From contig JADJNF010000004.1 in NCBI GenBank assembly GCA_016714445.1, positions 183,861 to 247,860 of the forward strand: 64,000 bases of DNA. The letters run 5' to 3'. The notes beneath the pieces were generated by a model. The model worked only from the letters and a program-made list of their open reading frames with translations, was not told where the DNA came from and searched no databases. Source of the stretch: Saprospiraceae bacterium (lineage in GTDB: Bacteria > Bacteroidota > Bacteroidia > Chitinophagales > Saprospiraceae). The stretch's first letter is position 1; the number at the start of each line of letters is the position of its first letter. Positions 38,870 through 55,815 of the stretch are shown one piece after another. Made by a program: the position numbers and the translations under genes.

Positions 38870-39317
38870 GCTTGAAATGCACAATGATGTCTTAATGGCC
38901 AATAAAATTCCGGTCTATGTTCTACCGGCAAAGGTTAAGTTTCACTTTGATGAAGGTAGGAAGTTTGAAGATGATATCAGAAAGTTTCTTTTGGATTTTG
39001 AAGTATAAGATATAATTAATGTACTATTTGAATGAATACAGTTACTTTTGCATCAGACGGCCATAAATGTTAATGCTGAAGTAAATCAATACATGGAATT
39101 CGGTCTTTTAAATGTGATGCAAATTGCCGGAGCTATAGGTATTTTTATCTATGGTATGAAGCTCATGAGTGAAGGAATACAACGAGCAGCAGGAAATCAA
39201 CTTAGAAATACACTCAGCAATCTGACCAATAATAAATGGCTAGGGTTTTTAACAGGATTTATTGTCACTGGACTGATCCAATCTTCTTCAGCCACCACTG
39301 TAATGATCGTTAGTTTT
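38870..39317 (+). repeat. Long direct repeat DR2 (lpxK 3' pseudo-fragment 38870-39008, intergenic, intact transporter 5' end)
   Basis: See DR1. The lpxK fragment encodes ...LEMHNDVLMANKIPVYVLPAKVKFHFDEGRKFEDDIRKFLLDFEV*. Confidence 0.8.
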
Positions 39318-44590: not shown

Positions 44591-45661
44591 TTAACTGATT
44601 TTTTCAGGACCAGTTCCTACTTTGTCCCTGATTATTCTACCTTCATTACAGTAGGGCTTCAATTCATCCTGAATAAATGAATTTACCTGATTTTCAACTT
44701 CGTCCGGATACAACACATGAACATTTGGACCAGCATCAAGCGTAAAAAACACTGGTATCGATGTTTGTTCTCTGAATTTTTTTATCTTCCTGATGACGCT
44801 CAATGTTCCTTCTTCCATAAGGATATATGAAGGATCCGAGCACATCATCAACGCATGAAGTGTCATTGCCTCATCTTCTGCAATCTTACCAAAATCAGAA
44901 ATATTACCTTGTTTTAAGGCGGTTATAAGTGATTTCATGCGCTGATTTGCCTGTTGATATCTAACCGGAGCAAAAGGGTTGCCTTCCATAAGATTGTGAC
45001 CGGCAGTAGACGAAACACTTTTTTCTCCTGCACTTATGATCAGAATGTCATCATGAAAGGATTTAAAAACAGGATGAATCTGATGCCCGATACCTATGGC
45101 ATATTCATCTGATGATCCCGGGATGTCTTCATGATGCCCCCACACAGCTACTTCCGGATATATGGATCTGCAGGCACTCCCACTTCCCAACCGGGAAACT
45201 TCAGAAGCTTTTAAGTAGAAATTTTCGTCAAAATTAGTTTTATCATTCAACTGATTTTCAATATCACAAAGACATAAAGCCAGTGCTGACATACCTGAAG
45301 CGGATGAAGCAATTCCACTGCTGTGTGGAAAAGAATTGCTCGTATCAATATGAATGGAGTATTTTTTGAGGAAAGTAAAATATTCATCACAAATGCTGTT
45401 TAAAAACTTTTCAACTCTGGTTGAGAATGCCTGATTTTCTTTACCATTAAATATAAAATCCAGCTCTACCTTACCTGTTCTATTTTCATCTTTGATGGTT
45501 ACAAAAGTTCTGGTAGCAGCGGTACTTAAGGTAAAACTAACGGATGAATTGCGGGGTAACTGTTTACCGTGTTTACCCCAGTATTTTATCAGTGCTATGT
45601 TTGATGGACTTTCCCACCCTGCTTTTATAGGATTACTTGGCATTTCTGTTGAGTTTGACAT
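44591..45661 (-). CDS. mvaD: Diphosphomevalonate decarboxylase (GHMP kinase family)
   Basis: NIALIKYWGK N-terminal motif. GHMP motif SSGIASSASGMSALA. Confidence 0.8.
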   Translation of the reverse strand: MSNSTEMPSNPIKAGWESPSNIALIKYWGKHGKQLPRNSSVSFTLSTAATRTFVTIKDENRTGKVELDFIFNGKENQAFSTRVEKFLNSICDEYFTFLKKYSIHIDTSNSFPHSSGIASSASGMSALALCLCDIENQLNDKTNFDENFYLKASEVSRLGSGSACRSIYPEVAVWGHHEDIPGSSDEYAIGIGHQIHPVFKSFHDDILIISAGEKSVSSTAGHNLMEGNPFAPVRYQQANQRMKSLITALKQGNISDFGKIAEDEAMTLHALMMCSDPSYILMEEGTLSVIRKIKKFREQTSIPVFFTLDAGPNVHVLYPDEVENQVNSFIQDELKPYCNEGRIIRDKVGTGPEKIS

Positions 45662-46328
45662 ATTTCAGACTGGTTTCATTTTCTATACGGTATGACACAT
45701 CAAAATCCTGTAGTACAGCATCCAGTACAGGATATTGCCCTCTATTGTATCCTTCTTTCAGATCATAACTGTATAATTTTGAAAAAGCATTCCAATAGAA
45801 AGCCTTAAATCCACCTTTTAGATCTTTAATCATATGGTAAATGGGCTGCCCCGTTTCTTTTTCAATCATTTTGATCATTATTTTTCCCTGCAGTTTAGTG
45901 AGATTGGTCAAAGGTTCTTCAAACTCTTTGGTAAGTTGTTCTTCCAGTTCTGCGATTTTCTTTTTTTTCTCCTTTTTGCTCATGTGTTGAGAAACATACT
46001 CCAGTTCCCTGAATATCCTTATGGCTTCTTTTGCATACGGATATACCTTGGCAGCATAATTTCTGAAACGTAAATATTTACGATATTCTTCATCATTAGC
46101 AAAAGTTCTTAAAGCGGTAATACTCACATTGTCGAGGTCCACCAAAATCAGGGTATCACCATTTTCTGTAATCAGGGCAGGATATATCTTGCCTTCAATA
46201 GATAATTTGGTCTCAATACCACCATTCGGAACCTGAACCTGACCATCAACAGCCCATACAGCATGGAGGAATAAAAAGAACAATAATAAACGATTCATCG
46301 AATGTTTTTTGATGATATTGTAACGCAA
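45633..46328 (-). CDS. Hypothetical secreted protein
   Basis: Signal peptide LLFFLFLHAVWAVDG. Basic KKEKKKK segment. Confidence 0.4.
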   Translation of the reverse strand: MRYNIIKKHSMNRLLLFFLFLHAVWAVDGQVQVPNGGIETKLSIEGKIYPALITENGDTLILVDLDNVSITALRTFANDEEYRKYLRFRNYAAKVYPYAKEAIRIFRELEYVSQHMSKKEKKKKIAELEEQLTKEFEEPLTNLTKLQGKIMIKMIEKETGQPIYHMIKDLKGGFKAFYWNAFSKLYSYDLKEGYNRGQYPVLDAVLQDFDVSYRIENETSLKYVKLNRNAK

Positions 46329-46496
46329 AGTTATGTCAATTAGTTATCTCATTTGAATATCTTTAACATAACCGATATATTTGCAGAAAATATCAGGAGG
46401 ATTTTACTATTAGTGTGAGAAATTTACCTTTTTTTCATTCATTTCATATCTCTGATTTTTATTTACCTTGTTTATTTATTTAGAGCATTTTTACCT

Positions 46497-48188
46497 TTGA
46501 GAATTTTACTGATTGTAATTTCATGTCTTTTATCTTTCAAAGTATTTTGCCAGCACAGCCTGCAGAAACTCAGTTATCCGGTCAATACGGATTATCTGGA
46601 TGAAATCTGTCCCGTGGTTTCTTTTGAGGAGGATATATTATTTTTTACTCGTGTGGCTGACCGGCATTGTGAAAAGACGCTGTATGTTGACAGTATTAAT
46701 GTATTTTCAACGTTCAAAACCAATGAATATGAGCAAAAACTAAAACAGGTGTATTCCCAGATAGCTTCAATTCCTGTAGATGATCCATTGTCTTCCGGAT
46801 ATAACCAGGATATATGGTACACCAGGTTAGTCAATAACATGCCTCAGGGTATATTTCATCCCGAGTACCCTATAAATGATGTCCTGCCCAATAGCATTTG
46901 TGCTAATTTTGGCAAATCCAGTACATTTTTGGTTATCAATCAGTTTGCACCAATGGGTGGTATAGAAAGGGGATTTTCTATTACTAAAATGGAAAATCAG
47001 GAATTCACTTTTCCGGAACCAATCGAAATTCAGCATTTTAATAAAGCAGCTTCTGAATTAAATATCACATCAAGCCTGGACTCAACAATATTGATTTTGT
47101 CTATGGATGATAGTCAGGGCATGGGCGATATGGATGTATATGTATGTTTTAAATTGGGAAACAATAAGTACAGTTTGCCAATAAATATCGGAAAAGACAT
47201 CAATACAGCGTATCGCGAATCTACTCCAATGCTGAGCCATGATATGAAAACATTGTATTTTACATCTGACAGACCCGGAGGTAGAGGAGGCAAAGATATT
47301 TATTACGCAGAAAGGAAAGATTTTACATATACATCCTGGACTGCCCCGATGACATTTGATCCTCCGGTAAATAGTGTTTATGATGATTCTCACCCGCACT
47401 TGCTTAAGAATAATAATATTTTTTATTTTACCTCTAATCGGGATGGTACCAGTGATATATTCCAGGCAAAACTTTTAAGAGAAAAATTACAAAAGGAAAT
47501 AATTATAAACGTAAAAATTATCAATGGCGATACAGGAAAACCCATGCCCGGAGAGCTTATATGGGGTGAAGCGTACAAACAGGAAAGACCGGGATATTTC
47601 AGATCTAAAGATGGGGTTTGCAGGTATAAGTTTTTTGAAAATAAACCTGTAGTCTTTAAAGCCATCAATAGAAACCTGTACAGCGGAGAGAAAATAATCG
47701 ATCCGCAGGAACTCATTAATCAGAATATCAGCGAGATGACACTGGAACTTATCCTTTACGGGGATGACCGGCCTGTCACACAAAAAGTTAAAGAAAACAC
47801 AGAGCCACAAAATATAGAAAACGGACTAAGTGAGCTTGAACTAAACAGAACGATTCTGCTCAATAATATTTATTTTGAAAGGACAAAAGCAGTTGTTTTG
47901 CCGGAATCGTATCCCACACTTCAAAAATTAGCTGATGTGCTTTTGTCCAGATCGCGCCTTTACATCAGTATTATTGGCCATACGGATAATGTAGGCGACA
48001 AAACTGCACTTAAAACACTTTCAGAAGACAGGGCCATGTCTATCAAACAGGTTCTTATTGAAAAAGGCGTTCCTGACTATAGGGTAAATACCATAGGTTA
48101 TGGAGATACCAGGCCCATTGCACCCAATGATACCGAAGAAAACAAAAGCAAAAACAGAAGAGTAGAAATTAAAGTGATATCGCAATAA
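46497..48188 (+). CDS. OmpA-family protein with N-terminal TolB-like beta-propeller repeats
   Basis: C-terminal OmpA domain NIYFERTKAVVL...IIGHTDNVGD...NRRVEIKV. Signal peptide. Confidence 0.7.
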   Translation: MRILLIVISCLLSFKVFCQHSLQKLSYPVNTDYLDEICPVVSFEEDILFFTRVADRHCEKTLYVDSINVFSTFKTNEYEQKLKQVYSQIASIPVDDPLSSGYNQDIWYTRLVNNMPQGIFHPEYPINDVLPNSICANFGKSSTFLVINQFAPMGGIERGFSITKMENQEFTFPEPIEIQHFNKAASELNITSSLDSTILILSMDDSQGMGDMDVYVCFKLGNNKYSLPINIGKDINTAYRESTPMLSHDMKTLYFTSDRPGGRGGKDIYYAERKDFTYTSWTAPMTFDPPVNSVYDDSHPHLLKNNNIFYFTSNRDGTSDIFQAKLLREKLQKEIIINVKIINGDTGKPMPGELIWGEAYKQERPGYFRSKDGVCRYKFFENKPVVFKAINRNLYSGEKIIDPQELINQNISEMTLELILYGDDRPVTQKVKENTEPQNIENGLSELELNRTILLNNIYFERTKAVVLPESYPTLQKLADVLLSRSRLYISIIGHTDNVGDKTALKTLSEDRAMSIKQVLIEKGVPDYRVNTIGYGDTRPIAPNDTEENKSKNRRVEIKVISQ

Positions 48189-48189
48189 T

Positions 48190-48753
48190 TCAATGGGCAA
48201 AATCCAGATTTAGCCAATCGTCCACTGTATTCAAATTTTTAAAATTTTGCAAATTAGAAGGCATATTTTTTACAATTTTTTGCTGTTTTAGAAATTGCTG
48301 AATTGACCTGCCACCAGATATGAAGTATTCTTCCAGCAAATCAAGCACTTCTTTTTCCCAGATGGACAGCATAGGTTCGTAGTGTCCTGTACTATCATTG
48401 TAAAACATGGTGCAGCCCTTTTTGTCATTATGTTGATGTATTAATGTTGTTATTTCGTCATCAGTTATCAAAGGTAAATCACAGGAAATTATCAGTAATC
48501 GTTCCTGAATGTATCTATGACAGGAAATGATTCCTCCCAGCGGACCTTCGCCATCAAATAGATCCTGAATGGTCGGATATTCAAATGTAAAGTGTGATTT
48601 CTGGTGTGGATTTGCTGATAAGTAAATTTTGTCACAAAAAGGAGCAATTTTTTCTGCTGCTATTTTATACAATGGCAAGTCTCCGAGAAATAACATAGAT
48701 TTGTCTTGCCCCATTCTGCTGCTTTTCCCACCAATAAGTACAACTCCGGTCAT
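48190..48753 (-). CDS. mobA: Molybdenum cofactor guanylyltransferase
   Basis: GVVLIGGKSSRMGQDKSMLFLG MobA motif. Start taken at the internal MTGVV; the ORF track extends to 48861. Confidence 0.7.
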   Translation of the reverse strand: MTGVVLIGGKSSRMGQDKSMLFLGDLPLYKIAAEKIAPFCDKIYLSANPHQKSHFTFEYPTIQDLFDGEGPLGGIISCHRYIQERLLIISCDLPLITDDEITTLIHQHNDKKGCTMFYNDSTGHYEPMLSIWEKEVLDLLEEYFISGGRSIQQFLKQQKIVKNMPSNLQNFKNLNTVDDWLNLDFAH

Positions 48754-48766
48754 ATCAATTTGATTC

Positions 48767-49633
48767 TTATTGCCGGATGCGTTGGCTGCCACTATATGTG
48801 TTAAATCCGGTCTTTTTGAGAAACCCAATAAGTGTCTGCCTGTTTTCAATAGCCAGCTCAATGGCCAGACTGGATGGTGCTCCGACAGCAGCTATCACAG
48901 GGATACCCGCCATGGCAGCTTTTTGTACCAGCTCAAAACTTGCTCTGCCACTGAGCAATAATATGTGTTCGTCGAGTGGCAATCTCCCTGCCATGAGTGT
49001 GTGACCAATCAGTTTGTCAAGTGCATTGTGTCTTCCTACATCTTCGCTATGAAAGAGATATCTGCCGTCAGGTGTAAATAAGGCACAGGCATGAAGTCCC
49101 CCGGTCAATTCAAATGCCGACTGAACAGTTAACAACCGCTCTTGCAGGGTAAATAATATATTGTCGTCGACGATAATATTTTTGCGTGGGGGAATGTACA
49201 TGGATTTTGCTGTGATGGCGTCTATGGATGCTTTTCCGCATACACCACAACTCGAAGTGCTGTAGAAATTTCTTTCCATCGACTCCGCCTGAATGATAAA
49301 GCCATCTTCTGGTAAAACATCCACCGTATTTTCATCTTTTTGTTTAACATCTGCAATGGCATTGTAGTCATTTATAAGGCCTTCGGTAAATAAAAATCCC
49401 AATGCCAATGCCACATCATCACCGGGAGTACGCATAGTAATACTGACTGGTTTTCCTTTGACCTCAATTTGTAATGGGGCTTCTACGGCAACAAAATCCT
49501 GAAAAGAAGAAACTATTCCTGTTTTATTTCTTTGAATCGTGACTTCCTTTATCTGTGATTTATGTCTGCCATTGTCAATCATGGGAAGATACAGTTGACT
49601 GAGGATGGGTATAGAGGTCGGATTCATCTTCAT
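48767..49633 (-). CDS. fdhD: Formate dehydrogenase accessory sulfurtransferase
   Basis: FdhD cysteine motif STSSCGVCGKASID and C-terminal HNALDKLIG...LLSGRASFELVQKAAMAGIPV. Confidence 0.8.
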   Translation of the reverse strand: MKMNPTSIPILSQLYLPMIDNGRHKSQIKEVTIQRNKTGIVSSFQDFVAVEAPLQIEVKGKPVSITMRTPGDDVALALGFLFTEGLINDYNAIADVKQKDENTVDVLPEDGFIIQAESMERNFYSTSSCGVCGKASIDAITAKSMYIPPRKNIIVDDNILFTLQERLLTVQSAFELTGGLHACALFTPDGRYLFHSEDVGRHNALDKLIGHTLMAGRLPLDEHILLLSGRASFELVQKAAMAGIPVIAAVGAPSSLAIELAIENRQTLIGFLKKTGFNTYSGSQRIRQ

Positions 49634-49943
49634 GCTGTCTTGGTTTTAAACATTGAAAATCTTTTTCGATCAATATATACAAACCACTGGTATCTTTTCC
49701 GTCAAAGCCAATGGTTTCATTTTTATCCCAATGCTGAACAAGTGATTGAGGAATGTAAATGGTAATAACACCTTGGATAAAGTCCGCAGTCAATTGCGGA
49801 TAATCACCTTGTTTTAAGGTGTATACCAACCGGTCATTTATAAATTGACAAACTGAACTTATTTCACCCTGATGCACTAAAGTTTTTATTTCTGTTTGAG
49901 AAAGCCTGATTCTTAATGAATTACCATTGATTCGGATTTTCAT
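49575..49943 (-). CDS. Hypothetical protein (first gene of the fdhD-mobA operon)
   Basis: ORF only. Start codon lies inside the 66-bp direct repeat DR1. Confidence 0.35.
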   Translation of the reverse strand: MKIRINGNSLRIRLSQTEIKTLVHQGEISSVCQFINDRLVYTLKQGDYPQLTADFIQGVITIYIPQSLVQHWDKNETIGFDGKDTSGLYILIEKDFQCLKPRQHEDESDLYTHPQSTVSSHD

Positions 49944-49999
49944 AATTTCTGATTTTTATGAAATGTAAAAATACTATAATTCAGTGAATGATGCAATAT
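49934..49999 (+). repeat. 66-bp direct repeat, copy 1 (bounds the ~3.2-kb islet)
   Basis: ggattttcataatttctgatttttatgaaatgtaaaaatactataattcagtgaatgatgcaatat. Identical except for one mismatch to 53161-53226. Confidence 0.8.
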
Positions 50000-50162
50000 A
50001 AAGGATGAATGTGACAAAGTACAAATAATCAAAAGATTTTCAATATTTAGATCGTAGTCAACGTCAATTTTATCATTCAGAATTTTATCGTTAAATGAAA
50101 TTCTGCCGCTTACCCTGCTATTGGCAGTTTCCTTTGATTGAATCTGTCGGGGTACATTTTTT

Positions 50163-50272
50163 GGGTGTATCCCATTTTTGTACAGAAACCAACGTATAAT
50201 TCCTTTTGTCTCCTTAAGGGTTAGGGTAAAACAAAAGGAATTTTACACTAGTGTTAATTTTGGGATACACCC
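50163..50272. other. Nested inverted-repeat structure (possible regulatory RNA element or terminator) in the operon leader / islet
   Basis: Outer 12-bp arms GGGTGTATCCCA / TGGGATACACCC. Inner 10-bp arms TTCCTTTTGT / ACAAAAGGAA. Confidence 0.35.
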
Positions 50273-50453
50273 GATTTTTATGATCTAAAAATCTCTCCCT
50301 CTTCATGATGATCTTTGATACTGTATTCTGTTCGCCCATGAGTTTTTGTGGGAGCAAATTATATATTTATTTTACTTCTTACCTTATGAAAATTCTATTT
50401 CGGCCACTAATATTTTTGCATTAAAATCAGCTTTCTAAAATTATAACTAAGTA

Positions 50454-50816
50454 TTATATACTTTTATTTTTCATCCAGTCCATCACTTTGTGCATAGTAT
50501 CTATGGATTGCCCAAAAGCATGTAATAATTCTTTGTCCGTGTAGTTATTGATCTGAGTACCGTTGATGGTAGAGTTTTCTACTTTTTCGATATTGAAGGT
50601 AGCCCCACTATTTTCTTGCAAAATAGAAGCTATAGGTACAGAAAAATAATCTGTAATCTTCTGGAGTTTTGTGAGGGTGATGTCTATTTTCCCATTTTCA
50701 AATTGGGAGTATGCTGCTTTGAACATCTCCAGTTCCTGGGCAACAATTTCTGCTTTATACCCTTTTTGATTCCTGAGCGCTTTTATTCGGGTAGCTATTC
50801 GGGCATTAATGTCCAT
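50454..50816 (-). CDS. XRE-family HTH transcriptional regulator
   Basis: IATRIKALRNQKGYKAEIVAQELEMFKAAYSQFENGK HTH. Confidence 0.6.
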   Translation of the reverse strand: MDINARIATRIKALRNQKGYKAEIVAQELEMFKAAYSQFENGKIDITLTKLQKITDYFSVPIASILQENSGATFNIEKVENSTINGTQINNYTDKELLHAFGQSIDTMHKVMDWMKNKSI

Positions 50817-51182
50817 AATTGTTTTTATAAAAAAAGTGACCATAGTAAGATAAACAAAAATACAATATACCGCAAATCAATAAAATGACCAATTTTATAA
50901 CGGCACATTAACATTTGTTTCGTATTTAAAAACAATGGTAGAGAAATTCAGAAATCTTTTCTATTTTATTTATCATATTTTGTTTGCAAATGCCGTTTCT
51001 TTGTTGTGTCATGATGCGGACGTCAGTATCTATGGCAGGTGGTTTTACCATGTTTCCACCGATCTCACAGCCGGCGGGGTGTAAGAACATTAAAAATCTG
51101 GCGGGATATTTACCCTTACCCGGCTGAACTACGAGTGTGAAAAGGCGATGAAAAAGAGAGGGAGAAATTTAATAATTTTAAA

Positions 51183-51377
51183 ATGGCTAATTTTTTTAAA
51201 AACTTTGAAAATTTATCTTTTAAAGATTCTTCAAAGACGATATGTGGAGGTGATACTGGAACAACTAAGTTTGATAAAATGACTTCGACAGCAACTAATT
51301 GGAGTTATCAATCTTATGATCCAACAAATTATGATGGTTCAAGTGGCGACTGGAATGACAGAGACGCATGTAAATAA
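51183..51377 (+). CDS. Small Ser/Thr/Asp-rich peptide, candidate RiPP (graspetide-like) precursor
   Basis: 64 aa. ...GGDTGTTKFDKMTSTATNWSYQSYDPTNYDGSSGDWNDRDACK. Lies two genes upstream of an ATP-grasp ligase homolog. Confidence 0.3.
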   Translation: MANFFKNFENLSFKDSSKTICGGDTGTTKFDKMTSTATNWSYQSYDPTNYDGSSGDWNDRDACK

Positions 51378-51495
51378 TTATTTTGTTTCTTCAAGAAATT
51401 GACTCCACAGTTTCCTGAAGTTTTTTCAATAATTTCAATTATATTTTATTATATATATTTATTTATTATTTTAAATTCTAATACATTCTGTTAAC

Positions 51496-52410
51496 ATGTT
51501 TAAAGTTAGATCGGGAGTAACATTTGGTATTCTGTTTCTTTTCTGCATAGCTAATTCTTGCTTTGATAAGACAAAATGTAATTTAAAAAAAATGAGTCAT
51601 GATGAAGTTTTTGATATGTTTAAAAAAGGCAGTTTTCCTCCATCTGATCTCCCCATACGTTCAATAAATGGGGATTTATTTAATCGTGATGAATTAAAAA
51701 ATTTTGATAATGAAAAATATGATTTTGCTCATGTTAAGGATTGTAATAACACCATAAAGTATCTACAAATAGTCAAAATTACATCTGATGATCTAAAAGC
51801 CCGAAAAAGATTAGATTCACTTTTTTCAAGCAATATTGACCTGCATATCAAGTTAGTAAAGTTTAGAGAAAAGGATACGGCGATAGCTAATCAAATAATA
51901 AAACAAATCAGAACTAGGGTGATTGTTCTTGATACAACTATTGATTGTGAGCATTTTTTTGAAGAACTCCAAGATGCTTTTGATAAAGACCAAGCCAGCA
52001 GGAGTTTAACAAATTTTAATGTAAACGACGACTTGAAAAATTTAGCTGTACTTGAGAGCATCACATCAAAATGTGGGTGGGAGGCTATTGAAAAAGCAGG
52101 TAAAGAAAGTTTGTATCATGCTTTTATAATTGTCCAGCATGCTCAACCAAAATACCGAATAAAATACTTTCCATTATTTAAAGGCTCGATGAATAAAGGG
52201 TTGATAGAAAAATCTATCATAGCTCTTATGATTGACAGAATTTTGATTGACAGCAACAAAAAACAGATATACGGTACTCAGTTTACAATTGACAATCAAT
52301 CTGGAGAAAAAATTTTGGAACCTATTGAAAACCCTGAAAAAATTGATAGTATAAGAAATACAGTAGGCTTAGGAACAATTTCAGATTATTTAAAAATAGT
52401 AAATAAATAG
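51496..52410 (+). CDS. Hypothetical lipoprotein
   Basis: Signal peptide with lipobox CIANSC. No recognised domain. Confidence 0.4.
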   Translation: MFKVRSGVTFGILFLFCIANSCFDKTKCNLKKMSHDEVFDMFKKGSFPPSDLPIRSINGDLFNRDELKNFDNEKYDFAHVKDCNNTIKYLQIVKITSDDLKARKRLDSLFSSNIDLHIKLVKFREKDTAIANQIIKQIRTRVIVLDTTIDCEHFFEELQDAFDKDQASRSLTNFNVNDDLKNLAVLESITSKCGWEAIEKAGKESLYHAFIIVQHAQPKYRIKYFPLFKGSMNKGLIEKSIIALMIDRILIDSNKKQIYGTQFTIDNQSGEKILEPIENPEKIDSIRNTVGLGTISDYLKIVNK

Positions 52411-52413
52411 AAA

Positions 52414-53172
52414 GTGATACTTATTTTAAGCAAGGCCCAGAACGAACTTTCTACAAATAAATTAGTTGATACCTTGAATTATTACAAAGCAAACTTCTTA
52501 AGAGTTAACGGTAAAGATATTGTAAAACCAGGGAATTTTAATTTTGAACTTGGGGATCATTTTTATCTTCATGGTCGTCAAATAGATTTGAACAATATAA
52601 ATGTAGTTTTTAATAGAAGATGGTACGATGATGAAGATTTTAATCTTAATGACTTTTTTTCCGGATCAGAATTAGATTCTTACACTAAGGAAGTTAAAGG
52701 TGAATTTTCAGCAATTAGTCAATATTTTTTTAGTAAATTATCGAAGGCCTTGTGGGTGCCCGAAGTTAAAACCATTAATAAAATAACAGTTTTAGAAAAA
52801 GCTAAAACAGTTGGTTTGAAAATTCCTTGTACTTACATAGTGCCGAAAAAAGAGTTCCTATTTAGGCTTCTTGATAAGCACCAAAAATTAATTACTAAAG
52901 CTTGCGGAGATATTTGGCCCATAAGAACTGAAGACAAATTGTTGACTTTTTTGACAAAAAGAATTACAAATAATGAGGTTGGTAGTGACAACATAAGTAG
53001 TGAATTTTTCCCATCCTTAATTCAAGAAGAAATAGATAAAGATTATGAAGTTAGAATTTTCTACTTCTTTGGCGAGTTGTACTCAATGGCTATATTATCT
53101 CAAAATGATCCAAGCACTGAAGTAGATTTTAGAAATTATAACCACTCTAAATTATCGAGGGGATTTTCATAA
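52414..53172 (+). pseudogene. Graspetide-type ATP-grasp ligase (MdnC/MdnB-like), C-terminally truncated at direct repeat copy 2
   Basis: MILILSKAQNELSTNKLVDTL...NVVFNRRWY...KTVGLKIPCTYIV...RIFYFFGELYSMAILSQ...DFRNY parallels microviridin ATP-grasp ligases. Ends about 70 aa early, inside the 66-bp repeat. Confidence 0.5.
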
Positions 53173-53226
53173 TTCCTGATTTTTATGAAATGTAAAAATA
53201 CTATAATTCAGTGAATGATGCAATAT
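53161..53226 (+). repeat. 66-bp direct repeat, copy 2
   Basis: See 49934-49999. Confidence 0.8.
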
Positions 53227-53529
53227 CAGTGGTATAGAGTATTTTTAAACCAGATTACGCATTAGGAAACTACTGCAACGAAATTCTACTTCATATCAAT
53301 TTCAGTACTCACTTTTCTGTCCTCGCCGTAGTATTTACTGCGACTGCGGAAAAAAATTCCGTGCTTAATTGCTATTTTGTATAATTCCGTTTCGTAACGA
53401 AGCCCAATGCTTAATCTGGGTTTAAATTTTCACCATGCAAACAATAAGATGAAATTTTAAATACCCTCTTATGAGAAAAGTTTCCGGTTAGAATTTTTTT
53501 AAATACTTTTACAACATAGTAATAAATTA

Positions 53530-55815
53530 TTGTCACTGGTAAATATTAAACATATGAAAATCAAACCTGGGTTAATCTGTATTTTAATGATGATTATTTC
53601 AGCAATTTCTGCTGCACAAAGCCCAGGCTTGGATGATTATAAACGGGCTGTGGCATATCAATGGGGAAATCTGCTGAATAAAAAAGTATTTAATGTACAT
53701 GTACAACCGATTTGGTTTAGCGACAGTACTGGTGTGGCTTATGTCATCAATGGAAAGAAAGGAAAGATTTTCCATAAAATTGTATTTGATATTGCTAAAC
53801 CTGAGCCATTGTTTGACCAGGACAAACTCGCAAAATTGCTCACTGAAATTCAGAAAAAAGAAGTCAAAGGTGACAACCTTCCGATTCAGGGACTGAGCTG
53901 CAAAAATACAGAAGTGGTTGGTTTCAATTTTAATAATAAGTCTTACGAATTTAATACAAAAACGAATGAACTGCTAGAAGTCAATCCCCAAGAAATAAAT
54001 GAATTTGAATCAAAATCTCCTGATGGAAAATGGATTGTATATACTGAAAATTATAATTTGTATCTGAAATCTATTTCTGACGGGAAGGTAAAACCACTCA
54101 GCACCACGGGTAAAAGACTATATGAGTTCGGAACCTATTACGGATGGTCAGATATCATCACGGGTGAAGATGGGGAAAGGCCGAAAAGATTTTCTGCTAG
54201 CTGGTCACCGGACTCAAAATGGATACAAACGTATATTACTGATTTCAGGGTTGCTGAAAAAATGTATTTGCTTGACTGGAGCATTGATTCGCTTTATAAG
54301 CCCAAACTATTATCTTATTACAGAGGATCTCCGGGCGATACGACGATGGTCAGAATGATTCCTGTTTTTTACAATATTGAAACGGGTGAAGAATACATAA
54401 AATCCCATTTGCAAAGTACTCATACCAATCCAATACAGTATGAATGGTCAAAACAAAATAATGTCATTTATCAGGAAAATGCCATTCGTGGATATCAGGC
54501 TGTTGAGTTGCACAGGTGTGACTTAAGTAAAAAAAATGAAGAGCTGCTGTACAGGGAAACAAGTAAAACCAACATCGACAATTATTCTTCCCTGATTTTA
54601 GAAGATATAGGTAAAATATTGATTACATCTGAACGGGATGGCTGGAAACAATTGTATATGCTTGATATAAAAGATAAGTCATTACAAAGGTTAACCAAGG
54701 GCAATTATTATGTCAATCAGATATTACACAACGGACCTCAAAGTGGTTTTATATTATTTACAGCATCAGGAAAAGAACCCGGAAGAAATCCATATCATCA
54801 GCATATGTATAAGTACAGCCCAACCACCGGTACAACTTTATTAACGCCGGAAGATGCTAATCATGAAATTTCCATATCCCCTGATGGTAAGTGGTATGTA
54901 GACAATATTTCAACCATCAATCAGCCTACACGAACCATTTTAAAAAGCACAGAAACAAACATGTCTCCGGTAGAGCTTTCCAAAACCGATGTTTCTGATA
55001 TGGTGAAAGACTTGAATTTTAAATTTGTGGATCCATTTACTGCTACGGCACGTGATGGCAAAACAACTATTTTCGGCGCTATCTGGAAACCTACTAATTT
55101 TGATGAAACTAAAATGTATCCCGTCATTGATCAGTCTTACAGCGGACCTCATACTTTTATGTATCCCCGAAGTTTTATATCTTCATTGTCCCGCTCCAAT
55201 CAGGCTCTGGCAGAATTGGGTTTTATTGTCATCACGGTGGACGGTATGGGAACTGCCAACAGATCCAAAGAATTTCACAATGTATCCTACAAAAATATGG
55301 GTAAAAATCTGGAAGACCATAAACTGGCCATCCTGGAGCTTGGTAGGAAATATTCCTGGATAGATACTACCAGAGTCGGTATTTTTGGACATTCTGCCGG
55401 AGGGTACGACGCAGGACATGCGCTTCTGGAGTATCCAGAATTTTACAAGGTAGGTGTTGCCAGTTCAGCTGATCATGATTTCAGAATGGAAAAGGACTGG
55501 TGGCCTGAGATGTATATGGGCTGGCCGGTAGACTCTACCTATCATAAGGTGTCAAATATTACCATGGCAGGAAATCTAAAAGGAAAGCTTCTGATTACCC
55601 ACGGGGGCATAGATGAAAACGTCAACCCTTCTGCCACATTTAAGCTCGCTGAAGCCCTGATTAAAGCCAACAAAGAGTTTGATATGCTCATCCTACCCAG
55701 CCAGCGACATGGATATTTTGGCGCTTACGGCGATTATTTTACTAAAAAACGTTGGAATTATTTTGTTCAGCATTTATTGGGAGCAGAACCGATCTGGGAC
55801 TTTGAGATGAAGTAA
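53530..55815 (+). CDS. S9-family peptidase (dipeptidyl-peptidase IV-like, beta-propeller plus alpha/beta hydrolase)
   Basis: Signal peptide. Catalytic Ser GHSAGGY. Asp/His region GGIDENV...RHGY. Confidence 0.75.
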   Translation: MSLVNIKHMKIKPGLICILMMIISAISAAQSPGLDDYKRAVAYQWGNLLNKKVFNVHVQPIWFSDSTGVAYVINGKKGKIFHKIVFDIAKPEPLFDQDKLAKLLTEIQKKEVKGDNLPIQGLSCKNTEVVGFNFNNKSYEFNTKTNELLEVNPQEINEFESKSPDGKWIVYTENYNLYLKSISDGKVKPLSTTGKRLYEFGTYYGWSDIITGEDGERPKRFSASWSPDSKWIQTYITDFRVAEKMYLLDWSIDSLYKPKLLSYYRGSPGDTTMVRMIPVFYNIETGEEYIKSHLQSTHTNPIQYEWSKQNNVIYQENAIRGYQAVELHRCDLSKKNEELLYRETSKTNIDNYSSLILEDIGKILITSERDGWKQLYMLDIKDKSLQRLTKGNYYVNQILHNGPQSGFILFTASGKEPGRNPYHQHMYKYSPTTGTTLLTPEDANHEISISPDGKWYVDNISTINQPTRTILKSTETNMSPVELSKTDVSDMVKDLNFKFVDPFTATARDGKTTIFGAIWKPTNFDETKMYPVIDQSYSGPHTFMYPRSFISSLSRSNQALAELGFIVITVDGMGTANRSKEFHNVSYKNMGKNLEDHKLAILELGRKYSWIDTTRVGIFGHSAGGYDAGHALLEYPEFYKVGVASSADHDFRMEKDWWPEMYMGWPVDSTYHKVSNITMAGNLKGKLLITHGGIDENVNPSATFKLAEALIKANKEFDMLILPSQRHGYFGAYGDYFTKKRWNYFVQHLLGAEPIWDFEMK

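Follow-up and report, generated by a model that had tools for sequence, protein, structure and literature searches.

The 64,000-nucleotide stretch of Saprospiraceae DNA analysed here (the window) carries a short islet between the 5' end of a DUF7009-fdhD-mobA operon and a gene for an S9/DPP-IV family peptidase, and this islet is bounded by two copies of a 66-nucleotide direct repeat (Table 1). Within it lie a start-less open reading frame (ORF), a long hairpin, the genes for an XRE-family regulator, a precursor peptide and a DUF6624 protein, and an ATP-grasp peptide maturase gene that breaks off at the right-hand repeat. This cargo is the 5' half of a horizontally acquired gene cluster for a peptide made on the ribosome and modified after translation (RiPP), of the grasp-with-spasm type (TIGR04192/TIGR04193; 'branch 5' of Makarova et al. 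2022). A preliminary description had recognized the repeat with its one mismatch, the start codon of the operon's first gene inside the first copy, the XRE gene, the small peptide and the truncated ligase, and had proposed an inserted module without an integrase of its own; these points are borne out by the data below, while the DUF6624 gene had gone unmentioned.

Table 1. Features of the islet and its flanks, in window positions.
Feature	Position	Strand	Remarks
DUF7009-fdhD-mobA operon	48190..49943	-	DUF7009 49575-49943, fdhD 48767-49633, mobA 48190-48861; 5' end and upstream 56 bp duplicated
Direct repeat, copy 1	49934..49999	.	First 10 nucleotides of the DUF7009 gene (ATGAAAATCC, minus strand) and 56 bp upstream
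Inserted DNA	50000..53160	.	3,161 bp; not in L057, L001, L058, L059
Start-less ORF	50001..50157	-	Runs into the left junction
MITE-like long hairpin	50158..50277	.	Terminal inverted repeats, perfect over 12 bp (GGGTGTATCCCA); lies downstream of the XRE gene
XRE-family helix-turn-helix regulator	50454..50843	-	129 residues; HTH_3, E 2e-8
Precursor peptide	51183..51377	+	64 residues; leader FFKNFE ... TICGG (double-glycine cleavage site); core DTGTT...SYDP...GDWNDRDACK
DUF6624 protein	51496..52410	+	304 residues; PF20329, E 3.8e-15; signal peptide and lipobox-like cysteine
ATP-grasp peptide maturase remnant (pseudogene)	52414..53172	+	Codons 1-249 homologous to grasp-with-spasm ligases; last 3 codons and stop from copy 2
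Direct repeat, copy 2	53161..53226	.	Left, truncated ATP-grasp ORF; right, resident intergenic DNA 5' of the S9 peptidase gene
S9/DPP-IV family peptidase gene	53530..55815	+	Flanks the islet; in empty-site strain L057, not in the sister species

The two copies of the repeat agree at 65 of 66 positions, with their starts 3227 nucleotides apart, and the single mismatch, T against C, falls at repeat position 15. No third copy exists in the whole window at up to three mismatches, and the repeat had 0 matches in 100 dinucleotide-preserving shuffles. Copy 1 includes the ATG of the minus-strand DUF7009 gene (Pfam E 6e-35), which overlaps fdhD (NF001943, 277 bits, above the cutoff), and the 56 bp upstream of that ATG are presumably the promoter and 5' untranslated region of the operon. 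A promoter within the 66 bp is suggested by a plausible minus-strand sequence, TTG-N20-TATTTTTA, which we take to be of the Bacteroidota type from a consensus assumed here; a sigma-70 promoter and terminator scan, which is not designed for Bacteroidota, gave promoters no better than those of shuffles. Because the target is duplicated, the operon in the filled site still has its own ATG together with the native 56 bp in front of it. Copy 2 starts directly after the last ATP-grasp position that can be aligned to full-length relatives.

The islet is a presence/absence polymorphism segregating within one species. In contig L057, from a conspecific strain that is 96-97% identical on both sides, window positions 45295-49999 are joined straight to 53161-54968 through one copy of the 66 bp, so that the empty site reads ...CCATTGATTC, the 66 bp, then CAGTGGTATA..., and the order is the DUF7009-fdhD-mobA operon, the single repeat copy and the S9 peptidase gene. 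An empty site in relatives is what the preliminary description had asked for as a check on the inserted module. Contigs of a sister species (L001, L058 and L059; 82-85% identical) also have one repeat copy and no islet, which identifies the empty site as the ancestral state. The filled site is found in the window and in contigs L049, L050, L061 and L063, and its two junctions agree to the base in all of them. These contigs were assembled from JGI and ENA samples and match the window at 96.5-99.5% identity; the islet is covered by short Logan contigs as well. L057, L058 and L059 are JGI metagenome contigs and were the three returned by a 39-nucleotide pattern taken from the repeat, L001-L016 are Saprospiraceae-type loci taken from a species-level genome collection, and most islet contigs were retrieved by exact match to the precursor gene sequence.

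The source of the window is probably a metagenome-assembled genome, and short-read de Bruijn contigs break inside the repeat, so the repeat could be thought an assembly artefact of a mixed population. We give this practically no credence, since JGI, ENA and Logan assemblies of different samples share both junctions and strain-specific single-nucleotide polymorphisms tell the copies apart. Logan contigs of 3236-3256 bp were considered as circles but rejected as evidence for them, as they end 30 nucleotides into copy 1 and 45-54 nucleotides into copy 2, where k=31 graph breaks would be expected.

The identity of the cargo can be read in part from the ligase remnant. Its ORF of 252 codons ends in ...KLSR followed by GFS, of which G-F-S and the stop codon are read from repeat copy 2. 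The best NCBIfam match is TIGR04192 ('grasp-with-spasm system ATP-grasp peptide maturase') with an E of 1.2e-44 over model positions 1-248 of 318, and the score of 152.9 bits stays below the cutoff of 230 only because the last 70 model positions are absent. DNA and protein alignments (blastn, tblastn) of the remnant to L051, L052 and L060 all stop at 53159/53160, and about 76 C-terminal residues are missing. The missing part contains the motifs LNTGS(I/L)D and FLE(V/I)NPxGQ, which are conserved in all full-length relatives and align with ...GAFDFI...FLEINPTGE... in the graspetide ligase structures 7m4s and 5ig8, to both of which the full-length relative P0004 can be aligned over its entire length. 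In the ATP-grasp fold this region supplies the Asp and Glu-x-Asn ligands for Mg-ATP, and the remnant has none of the C-terminal D...E-x-N motifs of a complete ligase. A search of 5.8 billion proteins returned full-length relatives of 323-330 residues and 41-48% identity, of which those at 45-48% score 264-280 bits with TIGR04192, and no full-length version closer than 69% identity. The same truncation is present in every window-aligned contig that reaches the 3' end of the remnant.

Intact loci of this type (L052-L056) have the order precursor, DUF6624, ATP-grasp, a protein of 60-63 residues and a SPASM enzyme, with a C39-ABC transporter and an HlyD-like protein in L052-L054; the precursor ORF was called in L052, L053 and L055. 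The SPASM neighbours of the full-length ligases score 241-270 bits with TIGR04193 against a cutoff of 175, and the L052 enzyme is among those that pass. This arrangement is the one that Makarova et al. (2022, PMC8939145) describe for branch 5, a Bacteroidetes-specific group with a secreted 'cluster 23' lipoprotein and with a small protein, 'LPL', encoded upstream of SPASM. From what is established for the family or can be inferred, the ATP-grasp ligase of an intact cluster would introduce ester or amide cross-links between side chains of the double-glycine-leader precursor, the radical S-adenosylmethionine (SAM)/SPASM enzyme would modify it further with the help of the LPL protein, and the C39-peptidase ABC transporter with HlyD would then cleave the leader and export the peptide.

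The islet resembles this arrangement in its TIGR04192 homologue, in the upstream precursor with a double-glycine leader and a cross-linkable core, and in the DUF6624 lipoprotein, probably of cluster 23, between precursor and ligase. It differs in having kept no more than the 5' half: the catalytic C-terminus of the ligase is gone, which presumably leaves the enzyme incompetent, and the adjacent LPL and SPASM (TIGR04193) genes and the C39-ABC and HlyD exporter are missing. No homologue of LPL, SPASM, ABC or HlyD was found anywhere in the 64 kb (tblastn, with SPASM and LPL queries from L052 and L051), and our statements of absence for cluster genes refer to this window alone. Graspetide clusters of the same type (gwsG/gwsS) ride integrative and conjugative elements (ICEs) of Porphyromonas gingivalis, where they are reported as mobile-element cargo with an upstream propeptide that is often uncalled and a type I secretion set downstream (bioRxiv 10.64898/2026.08.04.741601); the islet, in contrast, is fragmentary and has no ICE, integrase or conjugation gene.

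The microviridin ligases (MdnB/MdnC, MvdC/MvdD) belong to the same ATP-grasp peptide-ligase superfamily, but the microviridin models give the remnant only 55 and 43 bits (TIGR04185 and TIGR04184, cutoffs 425 and 475), and the islet has one ligase where microviridin clusters have two. The precursor core is also without the microviridin motif TxKxPSD. The preliminary description had proposed a graspetide or microviridin-like RiPP remnant, with a ligase homology that a profile search should support and a loss of some 70 residues at copy 2. The graspetide reading and the ligase homology hold, by the TIGR04192 match and by the precursor homologues beside intact clusters, and the loss comes to about 76 residues; the microviridin likeness does not hold. 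It had further left a choice between an uncharacterised family and a decayed one. The truncated ligase, its segregating premature stop (see below) and the missing partner genes favour decay, whereas a new family is not supported, as the type is described in PMC8939145 and only the precursor sub-family is uncatalogued.

The precursor has a Thr/Ser/Asp-rich core that ends in Cys. It is 38-40% identical to the precursors adjoining the L052 and L060 clusters, with which it has in common the leader motif FxxFE, the double glycine and the core motifs DTGTT, DP and DWxDxDxC. An exhaustive HMMER scan of 1.84 billion representatives yielded only three other 50%-identity clusters, and no curated precursor model in the Pfam and NCBIfam scans matches the 64-residue ORF. 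The precursor sub-family is therefore rare and uncatalogued within a known cluster type. The DUF6624 gene occupies the same position in L052, L055, L056 and L060, and His and Arg residues are invariant across its homologues; judging from the description in PMC8939145, its product is probably the secreted lipoprotein that graspetide loci encode as cluster 23.

The closest related cluster is in L060, a Saprospiraceae metagenome-assembled genome, where the DUF6624 protein is 59% and the ligase about 69% identical and the ligase gene is interrupted near codon 78. Positions 6700-13817 of L060 hold two damaged tandem grasp-with-spasm clusters, the upstream one with a ligase fragment, a SPASM gene and an 84-residue C39 fragment and the downstream one with a precursor, DUF6624, the interrupted ligase and SPASM. 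The interruption consists of 1.3 kb of low-complexity T/G/C runs and is probably a long-read assembly defect over a real insertion, because L051 differs in sequence there. Fragmentation of this cluster type seems to be common in the lineage.

Variation in the population was counted as segregating sites across eleven sequences, and all numbers are small. The ligase remnant has 9 nonsynonymous and 4 synonymous sites, among them the premature stop W168*, present in five of nine population sequences; the XRE gene has 6 nonsynonymous and 1 synonymous, and the DUF6624 gene 6 of each. In pairwise comparison with L049, the ratio of nonsynonymous to synonymous polymorphism (pN/pS) is 0.49 for the remnant, against 0.10-0.14 for fdhD, an OmpA-like gene and the peptidase gene. 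For the remnant and the XRE gene this pattern is in keeping with neutral decay, and for DUF6624 with either some residual constraint or too little time. We infer that the pathway cannot run from this locus and that the fragment is decaying; having lost the enzymes it would need, it amounts to strain-variable gene debris of an ordinary sort and does not constitute a new system.

Some observations weigh against simple decay. The 6:6 polymorphism of DUF6624 corresponds to a ratio of nonsynonymous to synonymous rates (dN/dS) of about 0.25, the window does not differ from L049/L050 in the precursor gene, the islet genes may retain some residual function, and a second complete cluster elsewhere in the genome could complement the fragment in trans. 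On a rival reading the fragment would still be useful: the precursor, the secreted DUF6624 lipoprotein and the leader-binding N-terminal part of the ligase might form an orphan module, for instance for immunity to, or as a decoy against, a competitor's peptide, or they might be completed in trans by a cluster elsewhere. DUF6624 is intact, with about as many nonsynonymous as synonymous sites where neutrality predicts near 4:1, the identity of the precursor gene extends over its downstream spacer in the window and L049/L050, and naturally truncated, catalytically inactive ATP-grasp proteins occur in other graspetide loci ('branch 8', PMC8939145). We nevertheless regard this reading as unlikely. 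The remnant carries a premature stop in five of nine sequences, the XRE gene is rich in nonsynonymous sites, the islet is dispensable, as L057 lives without it, and the truncation point is the insertion junction and not a domain boundary. The counts that favour use are small, and the identity of the precursor gene in all the contigs is mostly ascertainment, because most of them were retrieved by that exact sequence and the comparison with L049/L050 alone is informative.

The alleles of the repeat indicate how the fragment arrived. In L050 both copies are identical at 66 of 66 positions to the empty-site allele of L057; a derived T at position 15 of copy 1 is found in the window, L061 and L063, and a derived A in copy 2 of L049. 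The sister species differs from these conspecific alleles within the 66 bp at about 10 positions and by a 3-nucleotide indel. As the L050 copies match the resident allele while the sister species diverges, the repeat is a duplication of the resident target, made at insertion, and not a homologous segment brought in with foreign DNA. The right end of the insert falls inside a gene, the ligase, and its left end runs through the start-less frame. No integrase or transposase gene is present in the islet or in about 9 kb on either side (ORF list, Pfam and NCBIfam scans), and the islet has no terminal inverted repeats. We consider it likely that positions 50000-53160 are a strain-variable insertion of a cluster fragment which entered by an illegitimate, integrase-independent event with a 66-bp target duplication. 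In such an event two nicks 66 nucleotides apart would have made a staggered break where the DUF7009-fdhD-mobA operon has its promoter and 5' end, illegitimate recombination would have joined to it some random piece of a donor cluster, and fill-in of the stagger would have produced the duplication. With two repeats in place, the islet can now be lost by homologous recombination.

Against this insertion stands, first, that a 66-nucleotide stagger is unusual for illegitimate insertions in bacteria, and the mechanism itself is read from the anatomy of the locus. The identities of its flanks also do not set L057 apart as a clear outgroup, and L057 could instead represent a secondary loss of the islet through recombination between the repeats.

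A different origin of the repeats is suggested by their form. Direct repeats tens of bp long over a gene end are typical of integrase-borne islands, the presence or absence of the islet is precise at the repeat, and in the empty site the repeat's right edge is spanned by a palindrome of 10 bp (TAAAAATACT / AGTATTTTTA; 53193-53247 in the window). The repeats could then be attL and attR of a decayed integrative element, akin to a cis-mobilizable element (CIME), whose recombinase, once carried or still borrowed in trans, targets the 5' end of the DUF7009 gene. Flanking direct repeats with precise presence/absence also result from a target-site duplication. The lack of a recombinase gene in and around the islet speaks against att sites, as does the sequence of the copies, for the 66 bp are fast-evolving promoter sequence and yet equal the resident allele, which is unexpected of a foreign attP. 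The truncated gene, moreover, runs right up to the first base of the repeat without any intervening element-end sequence, and the islet matches no plasmid or phage record (blastn in distant mode against PLSDB and INPHARED). Taken together, these observations make att sites very unlikely. A plasmid or phage origin was rejected on the same null result in PLSDB and INPHARED.

The exact structure would also follow from a single crossover in 66-bp homology, with no special enzyme. In this two-step history a larger, complete cluster would first have occupied the site. Position 49933/49934 and codon 249 of the ATP-grasp gene would next have been joined by an illegitimate exchange, with a circle (66 bp plus fragment) or a tandem duplication as the outcome, and either a RecA-mediated, Campbell-type integration of the circle into a naive strain or loss of the remainder of the island would have completed the process. 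The strains do recombine: mobA (48190-48760) is only 80-85% identical between conspecific strains (the window against L049 and L057) inside flanks of 97-99%, which indicates allelic replacement or a recombination hot spot. Related clusters are, in addition, often rearranged or broken (L060, L051). More steps are needed than for direct insertion, though, and a full-length state was found neither among the 5.8 billion proteins (>70% identity) nor in the precursor-retrieved contigs that reach the 3' end of the ligase, and we judge this history to be improbable.

A precedent for long duplications lies in the window itself, 11 kb from the islet. An insertion sequence (IS) of 1,601 bp (37268-38868) with inverted ends CTGACTTGTC encodes an IS1634-family transposase (NF033559, 281 bits against a cutoff of 100) that is split by a frameshift into 38452-38829 and 37283-38482. 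It is flanked by a direct duplication of its target over 448/449 bp (36820-37267 / 38869-39317, 98.9% identical), a length typical of IS1634/IS1549, in which lpxK is included with its 3' end and a gene for a Na/Pi cotransporter with its 5' part. The elements known to make long variable duplications, of 8-514 bp, are two, IS1634 and IS1549, and no one has put forward a mechanism for this (De Palmenaer et al. 2008, PMC2266710). The 66 bp of the islet fall inside that range and, given the 448-bp case in the same window, within what occurs in this genome. Unlike IS1634 elements, the islet has neither ends of that type nor a transposase remnant: no inverted repeat connects its two ends to one another or to those of the IS, and tblastn found no match to the transposase. 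A non-autonomous IS1634 derivative was rejected on these grounds. The link between IS1634 and the islet is therefore circumstantial and amounts to a precedent. There is a slim chance that the same long-stagger chemistry is at work in both, in that an IS1634-type transposase, or host repair of wide nicks, captures a fragment that lacks terminal inverted repeats; if true, this would be a route of gene acquisition that needs no element ends. The occurrence of a 66-bp duplication without mobility genes near a 448-bp case of the IS1634 family is a small lead on the origin of long duplications.

By itself the islet matters little. Since the empty site, filled sites and several alleles are all at hand, it shows with good resolution the entry and decay of a cluster fragment in an uncultured Saprospiraceae population of the activated-sludge type. 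Genome-mining pipelines would report a 'graspetide' here that cannot be made, and the closest clusters (L060, L051) are broken too, so that the biosynthetic capacity of metagenome-assembled genomes is probably lower than the number of such clusters counted in them would imply.

The remaining contents of the islet lie to the left of the precursor gene. The XRE gene is absent from the closest clusters; helix-turn-helix regulators are among the common neighbours of these ligases (PMC8939145). The start-less ORF at the left junction is possibly the remnant of a second gene cut at the end of the insertion, and neither it nor a 47-residue ORF (50214-50357) has a Pfam match at E≤1. The hairpin next to it folds with -55 kcal/mol over 50130-50310 (z -5.6). 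A 22-mer of the hairpin recurs at L060 11082-11103, exactly where the L060 ATP-grasp gene is interrupted, with more copies 7.5 kb upstream (2357-2537), and this element of about 120 nucleotides is probably a miniature inverted-repeat transposable element (MITE) of Saprospiraceae. The region upstream of the precursor (50990-51140) is relatively G+C-rich, and a 54-residue ORF is called on its opposite strand in other assemblies. A structured RNA at about this position was considered and dropped, with no Rfam match at E≤1 and no conservation in L051, L052, L055 or L056.

Among the neighbouring genes, the order DUF7009-fdhD-mobA is kept in L001-L016. The peptidase gene on the other side has a history of its own. 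In the sister species (L001, L058 and L059) 118 nucleotides stand in place of window positions 53228-55813, and the gene is also missing from more distant relatives that retain the flanking genes; as L057 has it and the sister species does not, it was an earlier, separate gain outside the islet. The left boundary of the peptidase segment lies about 1-20 nucleotides from the right edge of the repeat, where the palindrome is, and this point may be a fragile or preferred spot. Characterised graspetides are protease inhibitors, and a functional link between the peptidase and the peptide was therefore considered; it was rejected, as the empty-site strain carries the peptidase gene and intact clusters lack it. 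Contig L063 (8369-8492; window 53549 onward) departs fully from the window 5 nucleotides before the in-frame ATG of the peptidase, with 124 nucleotides visible, and is another structural variant at this locus.

Further from the islet, the window holds at 31152-31957 and 34722-35000 two copies (83-100% identical) of a sequence of 170-280 nucleotides with a tRNA-like T-arm and acceptor end (…GGGTTCGAATCCCGTTCGGATTGCTA, minus strand), which ARAGORN and Rfam at its gathering threshold do not report. The pair brackets about 3 kb, and its second copy is fused to a Band_7/SPFH gene fragment. Between the copies, at 32793-32908, there is a sub-threshold match to YrlA (Y RNA-like) of 43.3 bits, with an E of 1.7e-7.

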